Both the position numbers and the translations under genes were made by a program. A stretch of DNA of 64,000 nt from Betaproteobacteria bacterium (GTDB lineage Bacteria; Pseudomonadota; Gammaproteobacteria; Burkholderiales; SG8-39): contig CANKMT010000005.1 in assembly GCA_947482825.1 (NCBI GenBank), positions 15,250 to 79,249 of the forward strand, in the 5' to 3' direction. Positions within the stretch are counted from its first letter, which is position 1; every line of letters begins with the position of its first letter. The notes under the pieces are model-generated. The model made no database searches. It was not told the origin of the DNA and saw only the letters and a program-made list of their open reading frames with translations. Shown here piece after piece: positions 17,851 through 59,641 of this stretch.

Positions 17851-18603
17851 ATGGGATTCGGGGCACTGATCATCGGCGACGAGATCCTCGTCGGCAAGCG
17901 GCAGGACAAGCACTTCAGCGTCCTCGTCGCTGCGCTGGCCAAGCGCGGACTGCGCCTTTCGTTCTGCGAATACCTCGCGGACGATCCGCCGCGGCTCACC
18001 GAGGTGCTCACGCGCACTTTCGCATCCGGCGACGTGGTCTTCAGCTATGGCGGGATAGGCGCGACGCCGGACGACCATACGCGGCAATGCGCGGCCGATG
18101 CGCTGGGTGTCTCGCTCGCGCTTCACCCGGACGCGGAGCGCGAGATCAGCGCGCGATTTGGCGGCGAGACCACGCCGCAGCGCCTGAAGATGGGCGAGTT
18201 TCCGGCCGGCTCCGAGATCATCCCGAACCCGGTGAACCGGGTGCCGGGGTTTTCGATCCGCAGCCATCATTTCGTGCCCGGCTTCCCGCAGATGGCCTGG
18301 CCGATGATCGAGTGGGTGCTCGACGAACGCTACCGCCACCTGCACAACTCGCACGCGCTCAAGGAAGAGTCGATCTTCGTTTTCGAGGCGGGCGAGAGCA
18401 TGCTCTCGGACCTCATGTACGGAATCGAAGCGAGGTGGAAGAAGTTGAAACTCTTCTCGCTGCCGACCATGGGCAAGGACGGCAGTCGCGGGCACATAGA
18501 GCTTGGCGTGCGCGGCGATCCGGCGGAAGTGGCGCAGGCGATGCAGGAGATCCGCGCCGAGATCGAACGCCGTGGCCACCCCTACAAGGAAACGCTTGGG
18601 TAG
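17851..18603 (+). CDS. CinA-like / MoCF-biosynthesis (molybdopterin-binding) domain protein
   Basis: The ATG at 17851 lies 6 nt after the permease stop. ALIIGDEILVGKRQDKH...VVFSYGGIGATPDDHT is typical of the CinA N-terminal domain. Confidence 0.7.
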   Translation: MGFGALIIGDEILVGKRQDKHFSVLVAALAKRGLRLSFCEYLADDPPRLTEVLTRTFASGDVVFSYGGIGATPDDHTRQCAADALGVSLALHPDAEREISARFGGETTPQRLKMGEFPAGSEIIPNPVNRVPGFSIRSHHFVPGFPQMAWPMIEWVLDERYRHLHNSHALKEESIFVFEAGESMLSDLMYGIEARWKKLKLFSLPTMGKDGSRGHIELGVRGDPAEVAQAMQEIRAEIERRGHPYKETLG

Positions 18604-18626
18604 TAGGCGCGGTACCGGAAAAGCAA

Positions 18627-18646
18627 AACCCCGCCGGAGCGGGGTT
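18627..18646. terminator. Bidirectional rho-independent terminator
   Basis: AACCCCGC-CGGA-GCGGGGTT hairpin. T-rich on the minus-strand side (TTGCTTTTCC) and CTGTTT on the plus side. It lies between the convergent cinA-like gene and the phasin operon. Confidence 0.8.
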
Positions 18647-18656
18647 CTGTTTGGCG

Positions 18657-18773
18657 CTACTTCTTTTTTGCCTTGCCCTTCGGCTTGCTGCCGGTGGGCT
18701 TGGCGACGAACCTTGCAACCGGCTTCTTAGCCGGTTTCGTGGCGCGCTTGCCCGGGGGCTTTACACGCGCCAT
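18657..18773 (-). CDS. Lys/Pro/Ala-rich basic ORF (38 aa from the ATG); it is also the distal part of the -1 frame extension of the phasin
   Basis: MARVKPPGKRATKPAKKPVARFVAKPTGSKPKGKAKKK with no acidic residues. The frame is open upstream back into the phasin A7 tract. See the phasin finding (18657..19360). Confidence 0.4.
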   Translation of the reverse strand: MARVKPPGKRATKPAKKPVARFVAKPTGSKPKGKAKKK

Positions 18774-18817
18774 GCTTACCGCGCTAACTTTCCGGCGCTT
18801 GGCCGGCTTCGTAGCGC

Positions 18818-19360
18818 TTACGCGGCTTTTTTTGCTTTCGCGAAGCCTTTAACCGTTTCCGTTGCGGCCGAGACATTGGCTTCGGCCATTTCGGTGGCCT
18901 GCTTGGCGGCTTTGCTGAACGTGTCGTAGGCCGAGTTGGCCGCCGACAGCATCGACTTGACCGCGGCGACGCCGACGTCCGAGCCGGCCGGGGCGTTCTT
19001 GCTCGCCTTGTCCAGCAGCGAGACGAGACCCTGGTTCAGTTCCGACGATTTCGCTTCGGCGAACTTCGACAGTTCGCTGTTGGCTTCGACGGTGATCGCG
19101 TACACGCTCTTCGAGAACGAAACGGCTTTCTCGACGGCGGGCTGCGCGAACGCCTGTTGCATCGTCATGAATTCCTGCACGTCCTTGGCGCCGGCCAGCG
19201 CGCGGGCGTTGGCGATCGAGTCTTCGAAAATCGACTTCAGCGTGGCGGACTGCAGGCCGGCCAGTTTTTCCAGCGCGGCGAATTGCGCGGCAGCGATTGA
19301 AAGGGCGGCATCAACGTTGGATTTGTTGGCCGCGGTGATCTGCTCGGGGGTAACGTACAT
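18818..19360 (-). CDS. phaP: Phasin (PHA granule-associated protein, TIGR01841-like)
   Basis: 180 aa, Ala-rich and helical. MYVTPEQITAANKSNVDAALSIAAAQFAALEKLAGLQ...FAQPAVEKAVSFSKSVYAI is typical of betaproteobacterial phasins. Confidence 0.85.
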   Translation of the reverse strand: MYVTPEQITAANKSNVDAALSIAAAQFAALEKLAGLQSATLKSIFEDSIANARALAGAKDVQEFMTMQQAFAQPAVEKAVSFSKSVYAITVEANSELSKFAEAKSSELNQGLVSLLDKASKNAPAGSDVGVAAVKSMLSAANSAYDTFSKAAKQATEMAEANVSAATETVKGFAKAKKAA

Positions 19361-19438
19361 GGTGATCTCCTTGAGGTTGGTGGTTGGTGTTCGGTTCTGG
19401 TGCTATGGATTCAGGTCTTGGCGACTGCTTTGTGCGTC

Positions 19439-19450
19439 GCAACAATTCAA
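19439..19450. promoter_or_regulatory. Candidate PhaR operator half-site GCAACAATTCAA upstream of the phasin gene
   Basis: It matches the 12-bp repeat GCAMMAAWTMMD that I recall from Ralstonia eutropha PhaR footprinting. It lies 79-90 nt upstream of the phasin ATG. Confidence 0.3.
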
Positions 19451-19650
19451 ATTCTAGGTTCGATGGTGCAGTGCGTCAAGAGGTTTTTAGAGACAACGTA
19501 AGATACTGAATAAAAGTGACAAACAGATGACTGCGGATGCAAAACAGAAAAGTCAGTAAGCACTTCGTTTGAAACTCCTGCGAACGCGTGACCCGGGCAG
19601 CCGGCGAAACGGATCGGGACGCTGCCGGCGAAAGCGGCAACAATGGCGGC

Positions 19651-20556
19651 ATGACTGCGCCCGCCGTGCCGGCTGCCCATTCCTCGCCGGTCGCCGGCCT
19701 GGCCATCCCCGGTCTCTTTGTTTTGTTGTGGAGCTCTGGTTTCATCGGCGCGAAGCTCGGCCTGCCTTATTGCGGGCCGCTCACGTTCCTGGCGCTGCGG
19801 TTCGCCTGCGTGGTCCTGCTTATGCTGCCGGTGTGCTGGTTGGCGCGTGCCGCGTGGCCGGCGAGCCGGGCGGAGGCCGGGCATGTGATGGTCGCCGGCG
19901 CGCTGATCCAGGCAGGCTATCTCGGCGGCGTTTTCGTAGGCCTCAGCCTTGGCATGCCGGCGGGCGTGTCTGCGCTGATCGTCGGTCTGCAACCGATCCT
20001 GACCGCCTTCCTTTCGGGCCACATGGTGAACGAGCGTGCTTCCCGTCTCCAGTGGGTCGGCCTCTTCCTCGGGTTCCTCGGAGTCATGGTGGTGGTGTGG
20101 GACAAGATGATGCTGGGTGCGGTCACCTGGGGCAGCGCGCTTTCCGCAATCGTCGGATTGGTCGCGATCACCTACGGCACGCTGTACCAGAAACGCCACT
20201 GCGCCCACGTCGACATGCGCACCAACTCCGTGCTGCAGTTCATTGCGGCATTCGTCGTCACCGCGCCCCTCGCGCTGGCGTTCGAGTCGCTCGAAGTGCA
20301 ATGGACCGTGCCTTTCGCCCTCGCACTCGCGTGGATGGTCTTCGGCCTGTCGCTAGGCGCGGTGTTCCTCCTCTTCTGGCTGATCCGGCGCGGTGCCGCC
20401 ACCGCCGTGGCGAGCCTGATTTACCTTTGTCCGCCGACCACGGCGATCCTAGCGTGGTTCGCGTTCGACGAGGTTTACACGCCCTGGGCCGCGCTCGGCA
20501 TGGCCATCACGGTGGCGGGCGTATGGTTGGTCACCTCGAATGCTGCAAAGGAATAG
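19651..20556 (+). CDS. EamA/DMT-family transporter (1 of 3)
   Basis: About 10 TM segments in a two-EamA-repeat layout. The ATG at 19651 is preferred over 19588 because the preceding residues are non-membrane junk. Confidence 0.8.
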   Translation: MTAPAVPAAHSSPVAGLAIPGLFVLLWSSGFIGAKLGLPYCGPLTFLALRFACVVLLMLPVCWLARAAWPASRAEAGHVMVAGALIQAGYLGGVFVGLSLGMPAGVSALIVGLQPILTAFLSGHMVNERASRLQWVGLFLGFLGVMVVVWDKMMLGAVTWGSALSAIVGLVAITYGTLYQKRHCAHVDMRTNSVLQFIAAFVVTAPLALAFESLEVQWTVPFALALAWMVFGLSLGAVFLLFWLIRRGAATAVASLIYLCPPTTAILAWFAFDEVYTPWAALGMAITVAGVWLVTSNAAKE

Positions 20557-53073: not shown

Positions 53074-54219
53074 CTACGGTTCCCCCGCCCCCCCTCCCTG
53101 TTCGGCTTCTCTCTTGAACGGTGAGTGCTCGTTCAGCTCGTTCACGTACTTGGCGATGCCCTCGGTCTCCCTTTCGAGGAAGTCTTCCACGGCCTTCGAG
53201 AACTGCGGGTGGGCGAGCCAGTGCGCCGACAGCGTCTCCACCGGCAGCAGTCCGCGAAAGAGCTTGTGCTGGCCCTGGGCGCCGCCTTCGAAGAGATCGA
53301 GCTTCTGCGCGATGGCAAAGTCGATCGCCTGGTAGTAGCAGGCCTCGAAATGCATCAGCGGCACATACTCGATCGCGCCCCAGTAGCGGCCGTACAGTGT
53401 GGTCGGCGTGTACAAGTTGAAGGCCGCACCGAGGGGTGCGCCGTTGCGCTCCCCGAGGATCAATAGCGTGTGCTCGGGCAGGGCCTTGCCGATGCGCTTG
53501 AAGAATTCCAGGTTCAGATAGGGCGTCGACTGGTGGGCGCGATAGGTGTTGAGGTAGCACCGGTTGAAGAACTCCCAGTGTTCATCTCGGATCTCTTCGC
53601 CTCGAAGCCAGCGGAAGGTGACGCCGGCCTCGCGCACCTTGCGCCGCTCCTGCTTCAGGTTCTTGCGTTTCTGGTGCGTCAGGCGCGACAGGAAATCATC
53701 GAAGTCCGCGTAGCCCGAGTTCTGCCAGTGGAACTGCACCGTGCGCCGCATCATCATGCCGCGCGAGTGCATGAGAACGGCTTCCGCTTCCAGGGGGAAG
53801 AGCACGTGCAGTGACGATACGCCCTTCGCGAGGTCGAGCGCCTTGCCAACCAGCAACGCGCGGTCCGCGTCGGTGGCGGCCAGCACGCGGGGACCGGTGA
53901 CGGGCGTGAAGGGCACCGCGCAGAGCAGCTTGGGGTAGTACTCGAGCCCGTGGCGCGAATAGGCGTCGGCCCAGGCCCAGTCGAAAACGTATTCGCCGTA
54001 GGAGTGCGATTTCAGGAACAGCGGCATCGCGCCGGCGAATTCGCCATCACGCTCGAGCACGATGAACTGCGGCTGCCACCCGGTGCGCGCTGAGGCGCAC
54101 CCGGTGTCGATCAGGGCGTGGAGGAACTCGTGCCTGAGGAAGGGATTGCCGCTGCACAAGCGGTTCCATGCTGCGGCGTCGATGCCGCCGAGCGTTTCGG
54201 CGATGCGGAGTTTGAGCAA
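53074..54219 (-). CDS. DUF482 / FemAB-like GNAT-fold protein
   Basis: NPFLRHEFLHALIDTGCA...GWQPQFIVL...PLFLKSHSYGEYVFDWAWADAY is typical of this family (recollection). Confidence 0.7.
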   Translation of the reverse strand: MLKLRIAETLGGIDAAAWNRLCSGNPFLRHEFLHALIDTGCASARTGWQPQFIVLERDGEFAGAMPLFLKSHSYGEYVFDWAWADAYSRHGLEYYPKLLCAVPFTPVTGPRVLAATDADRALLVGKALDLAKGVSSLHVLFPLEAEAVLMHSRGMMMRRTVQFHWQNSGYADFDDFLSRLTHQKRKNLKQERRKVREAGVTFRWLRGEEIRDEHWEFFNRCYLNTYRAHQSTPYLNLEFFKRIGKALPEHTLLILGERNGAPLGAAFNLYTPTTLYGRYWGAIEYVPLMHFEACYYQAIDFAIAQKLDLFEGGAQGQHKLFRGLLPVETLSAHWLAHPQFSKAVEDFLERETEGIAKYVNELNEHSPFKREAEQGGGAGEP

Positions 54220-57198: not shown

Positions 57199-57256
57199 AG
57201 CGCCCGCCGCCGCCAGAGGGACTGCAAGAACCCCTCTCAGCAATCGGGCCTAACTC

Positions 57257-57277
57257 CTCGCTTCGGCGGGATTTTTT
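57257..57277 (+). terminator. Small hairpin with TTCG tetraloop and T6 tail after the crp-like gene
   Basis: CTCGC-TTCG-GCGGG (one G:U pair), then ATTTTTT. Confidence 0.45.
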
Positions 57278-57349
57278 GATTCCTTTTCAAGTGCCTGCCG
57301 GGGCGCGGCCCAGGTAGGGGGGGGTATAATCCCGCAACCCGGATCCCGT

Positions 57350-59641
57350 ATGAGCGTAGCCGAAAAAGCCGACGGCGCTTCCCCCCGAACCGCTCCGCTG
57401 CCCGCCAAGCTCGGCAACCTGTTGCGCGAGGCGAAATGGCTGGCGCTCGTCGCCGTCGCGGTCTACCTGCTGCTGGCGTTGGCGACATTTCACCGTAGCG
57501 ATCCGAGCACTTCGCACAGTGCCACGGGGGCGACGGTTCAGAATGCGGGAGGGCAGTTTGGCGCGTCCGTGTCCTCGCTACTGCTCGAACTATTTGGTGT
57601 CTCGGCGTATTGGTGGGTGTTGCTTTGCCTGTACCTGGTTGTTTGGGGGTATCGACGCCTTGACGGAAGCTCGCTGATCGATCGGCGCTCAATCCTGATC
57701 GCGCTGGCGGGCTTCACACTGGTGTTGTTTTCCAGCGCTTCGCTTGAGGCCCTGCGCTTTCACTCGCTGCACGTCGAGCTTCCCCAGTCGCCGGGCGGGA
57801 TCTTTGGGGCAATATTCAGCTCAATTGCTTCTGGAGCGTTGGGATTCACGGGTTCAACGCTGCTCCTTCTCACGCTTGCGGCAGTCGGGTTCAGCCTCTT
57901 CACCGGAATTTCCTGGATCGCCGCTGCCGAATTCACCGGACTCGTGCTCGAGGGCCTGTATGGCCTGGCCAAGCGAGCGCGCGAAAGCCGGGAGGATCGC
58001 AAGATCGGCGAGATGGCGCGCGAGGAACGCGAGCACGTCGTCGAGATCGAAAAAAAGCGCGAAGAGAACCACGAGCCCATTCTCATCGCGCCGCCAGTGG
58101 TGGAGATCAGGAAATCCGAGCGCGTGCAAAAGGAAAAGCAGGCGACCCTGTTCGAGCACCTGCCGGACACGCCGCTGCCGCCCCTGAAGCTGCTCGACGA
58201 CGCGCAATCCGATGCCGAGCAGGTCAGCGTGGAAACGCTCGAGTTTACTTCGCGCCTCATCGAGAAGAAGCTTTCGGATTTCGGCGTCGCCGTCAAGGTT
58301 CTGGCCGCTTATCCGGGGCCGGTGATCACGCGCTACGAAATCGAGCCGGCGGTCGGGGTCAAGGGTAGCCAGGTGGTGAACCTCGTGCGCGACCTTGCGC
58401 GCGCGCTGTCTGTGGTCTCGATCCGCCTGGTCGAGACGATCCCGGGCAAGTCTTGCATGGGCCTCGAGATCCCGAATCCGCACCGCCAGACGGTGCGCCT
58501 GTCGGAAATCCTCGGGTCCGAGGCGTACCACGCCATGGCCTCGCCGCTGACGATGGCGATGGGCAAGGATATTGCCGGCAACCCGATCGTCGCCGACCTC
58601 GCCAAGATGCCCCACCTGCTCGTCGCGGGCACGACCGGCTCGGGCAAGTCGGTCGGCATCAACGCGATGATTCTTTCGCTGCTCTATAAAGCCGAGCCGA
58701 AGAACGTCCGCCTGATCCTGATCGATCCGAAAATGCTGGAGCTCTCGGTCTACCAGGACATCCCGCACCTGCTGGCGCCGGTCGTGGTCGACATGAAGCA
58801 GGCCGCCAACGCGCTCAACTGGTGCGTGGCCGAGATGGAGCGGCGCTACAAGCTGATGTCGTGGTACGGCGTGCGCAACCTGTCGGGCTTCAACCAGAAG
58901 GCCACCGACGCCGAGAAAAAAGGTCATCCGCTCGACGACCCGGCGACGATCGAGTCGGGCAATCCGCAACCGCTCACCGCGTTGCCGCATATCGTCGTCG
59001 TCATCGATGAACTCGCCGACCTCATGATGGTCGTAGGCAAGAAGGTCGAGGAGTTGATCGCACGGCTGGCGCAAAAAGCGCGCGCTTCCGGCATCCACCT
59101 CATCCTTGCCACCCAGCGGCCTTCGGTGGACGTCATCACCGGGCTCATCAAGGCCAACATCCCGACCCGCGTTGCTTTCCAGGTGTCTTCCAAAGTGGAT
59201 TCACGCACGATCCTCGACCAGTCCGGCGCCGAAGCGCTGCTCGGGCAGGGCGACATGCTCTACCTGCCGCCGGGCACCGGGTACCCGCAGCGCGTGCACG
59301 GCGCCTACGTGGCCGACCACGAAGTGCATGCGGTCGTCGACTACCTCAAGAAGCTCGCCTCGCCCGAGTACATCACCGCCATCCTCGAGCCCGAGATCGG
59401 CGAGGACGGCAACGGCGGCGCAGAGGCCGGCCCCACGGGCGAAAAGGACCCGCTCTACGACCAGGCCGTGGAGATCGTGCTGCGCACGCGCAGGCCCTCC
59501 ATCTCTCTCGTGCAGCGCCACCTGCGCATCGGCTACAACCGCGCGGCCCGGCTGATCGAGGACATGGAGCGCGCGGGCATGGTGTCGCCAATGCAGTCGA
59601 ACGGTAATCGCGAGGTGCTGGTCCCCGCGAAGCCCGAGTGA
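57350..59641 (+). CDS. ftsK: DNA translocase FtsK
   Basis: N-terminal TM segments and a linker, then the motor domain with [14 protein letters not shown] and [12 protein letters not shown]-terminal winged-helix gamma domain (LYDQAVEIV...[21 protein letters not shown]). Confidence 0.95.

Follow-up and report, generated by a model that had tools for sequence, protein, structure and literature searches.

A candidate dnaX-like -1 frameshift cassette at the end of a phasin gene in a clade of Burkholderiales

Described frameshift and granule-tethering systems compared with the phasin locus

In E. coli the most shift-prone heptamer is A_AAA_AAG, the site of dnaX, and in some bacteria dnaX is 'reversed', with the zero-frame stop right behind the site and a longer product that is made only by shifting (PMC5009743). 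The subject of this report is a phasin gene on the minus strand of a 64 kb stretch of DNA from a Betaproteobacteria bacterium (assembly GCA_947482825.1, contig CANKMT010000005.1, positions 15,250 to 79,249; the whole stretch of 64,000 nucleotides is called the window below). The gene ends just past a heptamer of this type, from which an open and strongly basic -1 frame continues. The arrangement is probably a selected recoding cassette that makes a tailed phasin by dnaX-type programmed -1 ribosomal frameshifting. For the clade of Burkholderiales concerned, the comparison of relatives leans toward a dnaX-like frameshift at the phasin end that would give a small, fixed fraction of the protein a polycationic tail linking polyhydroxyalkanoate (PHA) granules to the nucleoid or to another polyanion (polyphosphate). 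The mechanism is canonical; it is the phasin family that is new to recoding.

With an in-phase heptamer, a 9-nt spacer, a stem-loop and a stop two codons on, the locus has dnaX-type anatomy. The likeness extends to the reversed dnaX in the zero-frame stop directly past the site and in the prediction that the longer product is the shifted one (PMC5009743). As in E. coli dnaX, where the heptamer A_AAA_AAG stands in a GCA AAA AAG context, a 3' stem-loop lies a few nucleotides downstream; a Shine-Dalgarno (SD)-like sequence about 10-12 nt upstream is a possible counterpart of the dnaX stimulator, and the two predicted products would have a common N-terminus, like those of dnaX, whose ratio is set. 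The local sequence AAAGCAAAAAAG is also that of E. coli dnaX. The two systems differ in the protein, a polymerase subunit in one case and a granule coat protein in the other, and in the extension, a folded domain as against a short disordered polycation. Furthermore, the phasin stem-loop is a two-part helix with a spacer of 9 nt, whereas the spacer of E. coli dnaX is 6 nt.

A -1 frameshift is predicted in the csoS2 gene of 79 of 162 species (PMC5009743). The CsoS2A/CsoS2B pair of alpha-carboxysomes is like the phasin case in being a chromosomal -1 frameshift with a 3' stem-loop that gives two isoforms of an inclusion scaffold or coat protein in part of the family. However, the shift truncates CsoS2 and would extend the phasin, and both the heptamer and the protein family are different. 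The phage tail assembly chaperone G/GT and the OrfAB proteins of the IS3 family also depend on a -1 shift near the end of the upstream open reading frame (ORF), by which a minority of the product is extended and a stoichiometry is fixed, but their contexts are mobile or viral, in contrast to a monocistronic chromosomal phasin gene of the housekeeping type. IS911 and IS3 also use A_AAA_AAG.

PhaF of Pseudomonas has a histone-like C-terminal tail that binds DNA non-specifically and that positions and segregates granules, while PhaM of R. eutropha fixes polyhydroxybutyrate (PHB) granules to the nucleoid via its Lys-rich C-terminus (PMC5658603). PhaF resembles the phasin considered here in joining a granule-binding part to a highly positive C-terminal part. 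In PhaF, however, the tail is contiguous, has eight AAKP-like repeats and is present on all molecules, whereas here it lies in another frame and would be carried by frameshifted molecules only; moreover, the domain is of the PhaF/PhaI family rather than Phasin_2, and no homology of the tail was detected. PhaM is likewise a betaproteobacterial phasin-like protein with a Lys-rich C-terminus, a resemblance that is compositional only, but it is a separate gene and protein and also activates PHB synthase. The PhaM tail contains a PAKKA motif. The likeness to PhaF and PhaM drawn in a preliminary description of this DNA is reasonable as a functional analogy and does not hold as homology; the phasin cassette is related to these systems by analogy, not by membership.

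Conservation of the heptamer, the -1 frame and the stem-loop

The protein matched Pfam Phasin_2 (PF09361) with 80.3 bits (gathering cut-off 24.9; E = 1.3e-22), and at E up to 1 no other Pfam family was found, nor a PhaF/PhaI-type N-terminal domain. Its C-terminus is ...TETVKGFAKAKKAA-stop (...GFAKAKKAA-stop), encoded by the last codons GCA AAA AAA GCC GCG TAA. This ending, with its A7 run (T7 at 18827-18833 on the plus strand), was present in the window sequence as the preliminary description had given it, and the 56-codon -1 frame with 21 Lys or Arg and no Asp or Glu, closed by TAG at 18657-18659, was reproduced exactly. The A7 run is one of just five homopolymers of seven bases or more across the 64 kb.

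Comparison was made with 79 readable orthologous loci of 64-94% identity from a species-representative genome collection, giving 80 sequences with the window. Orthologues of 64-100% identity are nearly all precisely 180 aa long and end ...K(A/P/S)KK(A/V)A-stop. The zero-frame stop follows 180 aa in 74 of the 79 loci; four others stop at 177-181 aa, and in L008 the contig ends before the gene does. The ending ...KKAA-stop is kept from 100% down to 40% identity, with phasins at 40-53% ending ...KKAA or ...KKSG. An in-phase A_AAA_AAG or A_AAA_AAA at the Lys-Lys codons was found in 54 of the 80 sequences, most tailed orthologues carrying A6G rather than A7. A contiguous basic -1 frame, defined as 16-56 open codons with at least 30% Lys/Arg and at most two Asp/Glu, runs from the heptamer in 51 of these 54. 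Where the heptamer is disrupted (GAAGAAA, CAAGAAA and similar), 19 of 26 sequences have no tail frame, and in these a terminator comes within about 30-45 nt of the phasin stop. The resulting table of heptamer against tail (51, 3, 7, 19) gives a Fisher p of 6e-10, uncorrected for phylogeny. The frame always begins at the heptamer and is always -1 relative to the phasin.

The states were mapped on a neighbour-joining tree of phasin residues 1-170, from which the slip site was excluded. The state with neither heptamer nor tail has about eight separate origins on this tree, shift site and -1 ORF being gained or lost jointly across the relatives, and the state with both is widespread and looks ancestral to the clade. 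Phasins at 49-53% identity have neither part, so the cassette is a feature of one clade of uncultured Burkholderiales/Betaproteobacteria from soil and water. The alignment of orthologues that the preliminary description had proposed as a check gave a clear outcome: the zero-frame stop is conserved and the tail is not contiguous with the phasin frame, while the A-run and the open -1 frame are conserved.

The heptamer has the form X_XXY_YYZ in phase with the zero frame, as in dnaX-type -1 frameshift cassettes. The genes compared are GC-rich, with a G+C content at third codon positions (GC3) of 0.87. The Ala codon at the site is nevertheless GCA in 48 of 55 cases (3.6% of Ala codons in the rest of these genes), and the Lys codon is AAA in 61 of 77 cases (17% of Lys codons in the rest). 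The non-Ala codons that replace GCA (CCA, ACA, GTA) end in A too. Judged by codon use, the heptamer is under nucleotide-level selection and is kept by otherwise rare codons.

Two further heptamers were seen in the window. The tail itself ends GCA AAA AAG AAG TAG, which is another A_AAA_AAG (18661-18669, minus strand), in phase with the tail frame and situated four codons ahead of its stop; it is not conserved, close relatives having GCG AAA AAG, and is probably a by-product of Lys codons. An in-phase A_AAA_AAG (GA-A AAA AAG) also occurs at 58051-58057 on the plus strand, in the linker region of an FtsK/SpoIIIE gene (ORF 57254-59641). The -1 frame at that site is open for about 103 codons, is rich in Arg, Ala and Gly with acidic residues, and resembles ordinary off-frame GC-rich sequence, which makes this heptamer an internal contrast to the phasin site.

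All 54 slippery loci, and 18 of the 26 non-slippery ones, have an SD-like AAGG(G) at 12-14 nt 5' of the site; a conserved Lys-Gly dipeptide encodes this putative stimulator. In a sub-clade without the heptamer (L022, L053, L054, L071, L059, L052, L062 and L065) the otherwise conserved upstream VKG has become ARG, a change that removes the AAGGG 12-14 nt 5' of the former shift site. It could reflect relaxed constraint on the 5' stimulator after loss of the cassette, or plain shared ancestry.

The window tail is 38% Lys/Arg, with KPAK and KKP motifs and no regular tandem repeat. At 56 aa and a charge of +21 it is the longest of the tails, which have a median length of 31 aa and a median net charge of +13. 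Lys, Arg, Pro and Ala dominate in an acid-free, disordered-looking sequence that evolves rapidly yet retains its charge. Within the window's clade the tails are homologous as proteins (SAxKPAKRRxVSA...AKPxKKPxxK...GKAKKK). Pairwise indels are divisible by three in 42 of 42 cases in this clade and in 896 of 1081 in the main clade, where about one third would be expected for non-coding DNA. When 50 distinct tails were pooled, the tail frame contained 44% Lys/Arg and 1.0% Asp/Glu and was free of stops, whereas the two remaining frames of this DNA contained 30% and 18% Lys/Arg, 4.6% and 15.9% Asp/Glu, and stops. GC3 peaks in the tail frame. Openness of the -1 frame is by itself no rarity: 26% of mononucleotide shuffles left the window tail open. 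A tail both open and acid-free arose in 0.08% of shuffles, and the evidence from the relatives goes far beyond chance.

An in-frame ATG, GTG or TTG is missing from most orthologous tails, so that these would be expressed only via frameshifting from the phasin frame. The -1 ORF is thus conserved, carries coding signatures and is reachable only from the frame upstream. A search with the tail alone against 5.8 billion protein clusters gave no match at E up to 10, which indicates that the tail has never been called as a gene or part of one; a Pfam search of the tail likewise gave no match.

The tails usually terminate in a run of Lys/Arg right before or within the terminator. In many main-clade loci (L023, L034, L037, L039, L042, L044, L046-L048, L055, L056, L068, L070, L074 and L077) the tail ends ...AAA GCC CGC CGC TAG about 100 nt past the phasin stop, and there the last four tail codons and the stop form the 5' arm and loop of an intrinsic terminator (AAAGCCCGCC-GCTA-GGCGGGCTTT). 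Ribosomes that had changed frame would thus read on into the stem of the terminator, and they might influence termination or the stability of the mRNA 3' end.

The stem-loop of the window has a free energy of -18 kcal/mol and a z-score of -2.7 by direct folding, and it lies within the 5-9 nt 3' of the heptamer at which a dnaX-type cassette has its stimulatory structure. In a sequence-only alignment of 28 main-clade loci the same two-part helix occurs at the same spacing, its nine pairs being 93% paired, against 17-43% with the partners slid. Compensatory double changes were found in four stem pairs, and none of 500 shuffles matched the observed values. A covariance model was built from these 28 sequences, the window's clade not being in the seed. 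It matched the window at 18771-18833 on the minus strand (30.6 bits, E = 1.4e-5) and also found the window's close relatives, with nine of nine pairs in L001, L003, L004 and L020. The model alignment put the inner stem of the window into an insert, leaving four of nine pairs, whereas direct folding gave the full two-part hairpin. Other clades have other outer stems at the same position (GUCC/GGAC, GUUCC/GGGAC, GCGGUUC/GAACCGC, GUCCGG/CCGGAC, GCGGAC/GUCCGC). The length of the loop varies by multiples of three, as expected because the structure sits within coding sequence.

Table 1. Positions of the phasin gene, the parts of the putative cassette and the flanking signals in the window
Feature	Position	Strand	Remarks
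Promoter-like TTGACG-17-TAGAAT	19451..19479	(-)	about 90 nt 5' of the phasin ATG; 10 of 12 consensus matches
Phasin gene, zero frame	18818..19360	(-)	180 aa and TAA 18818-18820; Phasin_2 domain at residues 6-103
SD-like AAAGG, possible 5' stimulator as in dnaX	18846..18850	(-)	12 nt 5' of the heptamer
Slippery heptamer A_AAA_AAA, in phase (GC-A AAA AAA)	18827..18833	(-)	T7 on the plus strand; A_AAA_AAG or A_AAA_AAA in orthologues
Spacer GCCGCGUAA, heptamer to stem-loop	18818..18826	(-)	9 nt; last two sense codons and zero-frame stop; 9 nt in most slippery loci
Stem-loop GCGCUA-cgaag-CCGGC-caagc-GCCGG-aaagu-UAGCGC	18781..18817	(-)	putative 3' stimulator, two-part helix
-1 frame extension, 56 codons (SRVSATKPAKRRK...GKAKKK)	18657..18827	(-)	TAG 18657-18659; 21 Lys/Arg, 0 Asp/Glu
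Intrinsic terminator CCCCGC-TCCG-GCGGGG then UUUUGCUUUU	18619..18646	(-)	hairpin 18644-18629, T-tract 18628-18619

Proposed mechanism and alternative explanations

The conserved heptamer, the coding -1 frame, the 3' stem-loop and the repeated co-loss together strongly favor the second of three options in the preliminary description, a recoding site that gives two isoforms. According to this mechanism, most ribosomes would read GCA AAA AAA GCC GCG TAA and release the ordinary 180-aa phasin. The stem-loop starting 9 nt downstream would hold some ribosomes over A_AAA_AAA (A_AAA_AAG in most relatives), and the SD-like AAAGG 12 nt upstream may assist. The two tRNA-Lys would then slip back by one base, and translation would go on in the -1 frame for 56 codons to the TAG just before the terminator. 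The predicted outcome is that a fixed minor share of the phasin bears a disordered, Lys-, Arg-, Pro- and Ala-rich tail with a charge of about +21. That the slippage would be ribosomal we infer from parts, conservation, coding signatures and a coupled loss that can be read in the aligned loci.

Through frameshifting the cell would fix how much tethering coat protein is made relative to the plain form. In cells that store PHA, phasins generally belong to the proteins of highest abundance, so that frameshifting at a few per cent would already yield many tailed molecules. By analogy with PhaF and PhaM, the tailed phasin would most likely be a sub-stoichiometric tether that connects the granule to a polyanion, probably nucleoid DNA. 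If the frameshift cassette is granted, the chances of a nucleoid-tethering role would be roughly balanced; the tail may bind polyphosphate, RNA or acidic membranes instead.

Several observations weigh against this account. A_AAA_AAA, the heptamer of the window's clade, shifts less readily in E. coli than A_AAA_AAG does (PMC5009743). The helix-count control (outer stem of 4 bp or more, with a stable fold inside it) failed to separate slippery from non-slippery loci, and mean fold z-scores over the 70 nt past the heptamer were likewise not discriminating, since tailless loci have a terminator behind the stop. Reliance was therefore placed on the covariation count and the covariance model, and since the stems vary little within clades, the covariation support is moderate. 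The SAKPG and ARSSAK blocks of the tail overlap the arms of the stem-loop and hence are no independent evidence for a peptide; their conservation is credited to the RNA. As no homologue of the tail was detected, its function is read from its composition. The heptamer is kept in L002, where the tail has been lost, and in L029, where the tail is short. In L050 and L058 a basic -1 frame follows CAAGAAA, with no perfect heptamer. The 64 kb window contains no tRNA-Lys gene, its sole tRNA being tRNA-Ser. Finally, all sequences come from metagenome-assembled genomes of uncultured organisms.

A short tail is also present in L006, and five loci with G_AAA_AAG or GAAGAAG have remnants of 16-17 codons (67 codons in L065). 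From their sequences, these five loci and L050 and L058 look like intermediate stages of loss. The third option of the preliminary description, a decaying tail, applies to some relatives and does not fit the window: decay is visible in L002, L029 and L006, whereas all parts are intact in the window. In L073 the tail frame continues beyond the terminator; the 'tig' name of its contig suggests a long-read assembly, in which an indel error is possible.

The main rival explanation for the A7 of the window is that RNA polymerase rather than the ribosome slips, adding one A within the A7/T7 run, and that the altered mRNA is then read normally. One added A would yield exactly the same tailed protein as a -1 ribosomal shift, the A7 of the window and its close relatives is uninterrupted, and bacteria are known to slip on A/T runs during transcription (PMC5009743). 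However, productive runs typically have about nine bases or more (PMC5009743), longer than A7 or A6G, and the A6G of most tailed orthologues leaves a short run of six A. Moreover, a polymerase needs neither a stem-loop at 9-nt spacing nor strict zero-frame phasing. The A6G of most relatives, the phasing and the stem-loop place ribosomal frameshifting well ahead of transcriptional slippage, which is unlikely as the source of the tail.

A second alternative is that the region is not translated at all, but is a structured 3' untranslated region or a 3'-derived small RNA, the basic -1 frame being a by-product of A/G-rich sequence within GC-rich DNA. The openness of the frame in about a quarter of the shuffles is in keeping with this, as are the position of the best-conserved tail blocks in hairpin arms and the overlap of the tail end with the terminator stem in many relatives. 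An Rfam scan of the region gave weak, sub-threshold matches to small RNAs over the terminator end, but no family at threshold. An untranslated region would leave unexplained why indels are overwhelmingly multiples of three, why acidic codons and stops are depleted in the tail frame only, and why the frame always starts from the heptamer and is always -1. It also conflicts with the rare codons that keep the heptamer within the phasin ORF and with the joint loss of heptamer and tail. This explanation is therefore considered quite improbable.

The preliminary description had also raised a 38-aa basic peptide from an internal ATG, and the window does have an in-frame ATG at 18773 from which such an independent small protein, or one made by re-initiation past the phasin stop, could be translated. 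However, this ATG has no SD-like sequence and is not conserved: close relatives have GTG at this position or lack it, and none of the three start codons occurs in most of the orthologous tails. No such protein was found in the 5.8 billion clusters, and the tail frame stands at -1 to the phasin in every case, which makes an independent protein very improbable.

The first option of the preliminary description was a homopolymer miscall in a contiguous tailed phasin gene, to which a recent pseudogenising frameshift may be added. Homopolymers are error-prone, and in the database proteins P0148 and P0140 the phasin reading passes over into the tail frame. However, the phasin is identical in four short-read metagenome assemblies, each from a separate sample, and so are all 281 nt of the region with the A7 and the whole tail; the source contig of the window may be among the four. 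The best 150 matches from 1.84 billion representatives included no clean relative with the tail in frame. A search with a conceptual fusion returned just 180-aa phasins or longer proteins with N-terminal mis-starts. P0148, the one full-length match to the fusion among the representatives, has several internal frame breaks and is a noisy sequence rather than a contiguous gene, and P0140 was rejected for several other frame errors. With four assemblies agreeing on A7, the stop after 180 aa in 74 of 79 loci and the zero-frame ending conserved down to 40% identity, an error or a recently broken gene is scarcely credible; on the evidence of these sequences, the site is neither a broken gene nor a miscall.

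In two other database proteins, P0060 and P0062, which are relatives, the zero frame continues beyond the phasin stop (...KKVA-Y-APKRPRGPRV... and ...KKVAEAAARAPRARRK...), which suggests a stop-codon substitution or a sequence error. Their extensions are moderately basic and are unrelated to the -1 tails.

Flanking sequence and meaning of the candidate cassette

The phasin gene is monocistronic, with a divergent EamA transporter gene on one side and a convergent MoCF/CinA-like gene on the other. The promoter-like site in Table 1 is the sole one in 18400-19700, where shuffles of the region average 0.2 sites. The preliminary description had placed the only terminator just past the tail frame, and this was borne out: the terminator starts about 12 nt past the tail TAG and is the sole terminator-like site on that strand between the phasin and the next gene. 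It is common to the phasin gene and the convergent MoCF/CinA-like gene, which ends at 18603. The neighbours (the EamA transporter, the MoCF/CinA-like protein, an ABC ATPase and a molybdopterin oxidoreductase) gave no functional clue, and no second phasin was found in the 64 kb. Among the other homopolymers of the window, a G8 run at 57317-57324 on the plus strand directly precedes the TATAAT-like GGTAGGGGGGGGTATAATCCC, close to where the FtsK ORF region starts, and a C7 run is found at 53088-53094 on the plus strand.

A literature search found no indexed paper with both phasin and ribosomal frameshifting, in an index that does not span all journals. Judged by titles and abstracts, the papers that pair phasin with frameshift apparently concern ordinary mutations or unrelated topics. 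A 2016 review of recoding mentions neither phasins nor polyhydroxyalkanoate (PMC5009743).

In practical terms, gene calling has overlooked what is probably a conserved segment of protein, as the tail is missing from 5.8 billion clusters of predicted proteins. To our knowledge, few conserved chromosomal -1 frameshifts of bacteria yield two useful proteins, the main examples being dnaX, csoS2 and copA. Each of the three has taught how cells fix protein ratios without regulation. The phasin cassette, at about 60 nt, could be a compact ratio-setting part for the engineering of PHA granules. If the proposed frameshift is real, it would be the first recoding event in the biology of PHA granules, and these would be the second bacterial inclusion, after that of CsoS2, in which the stoichiometry of a coat or scaffold protein is set by frameshifting. 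It would also add a new gene family with a clear rationale, that of a very abundant coat protein of which a small and constant fraction carries a tether. In this clade, recoding of the main phasin would then do the job that is done elsewhere by separate tailed proteins such as PhaF and PhaM.

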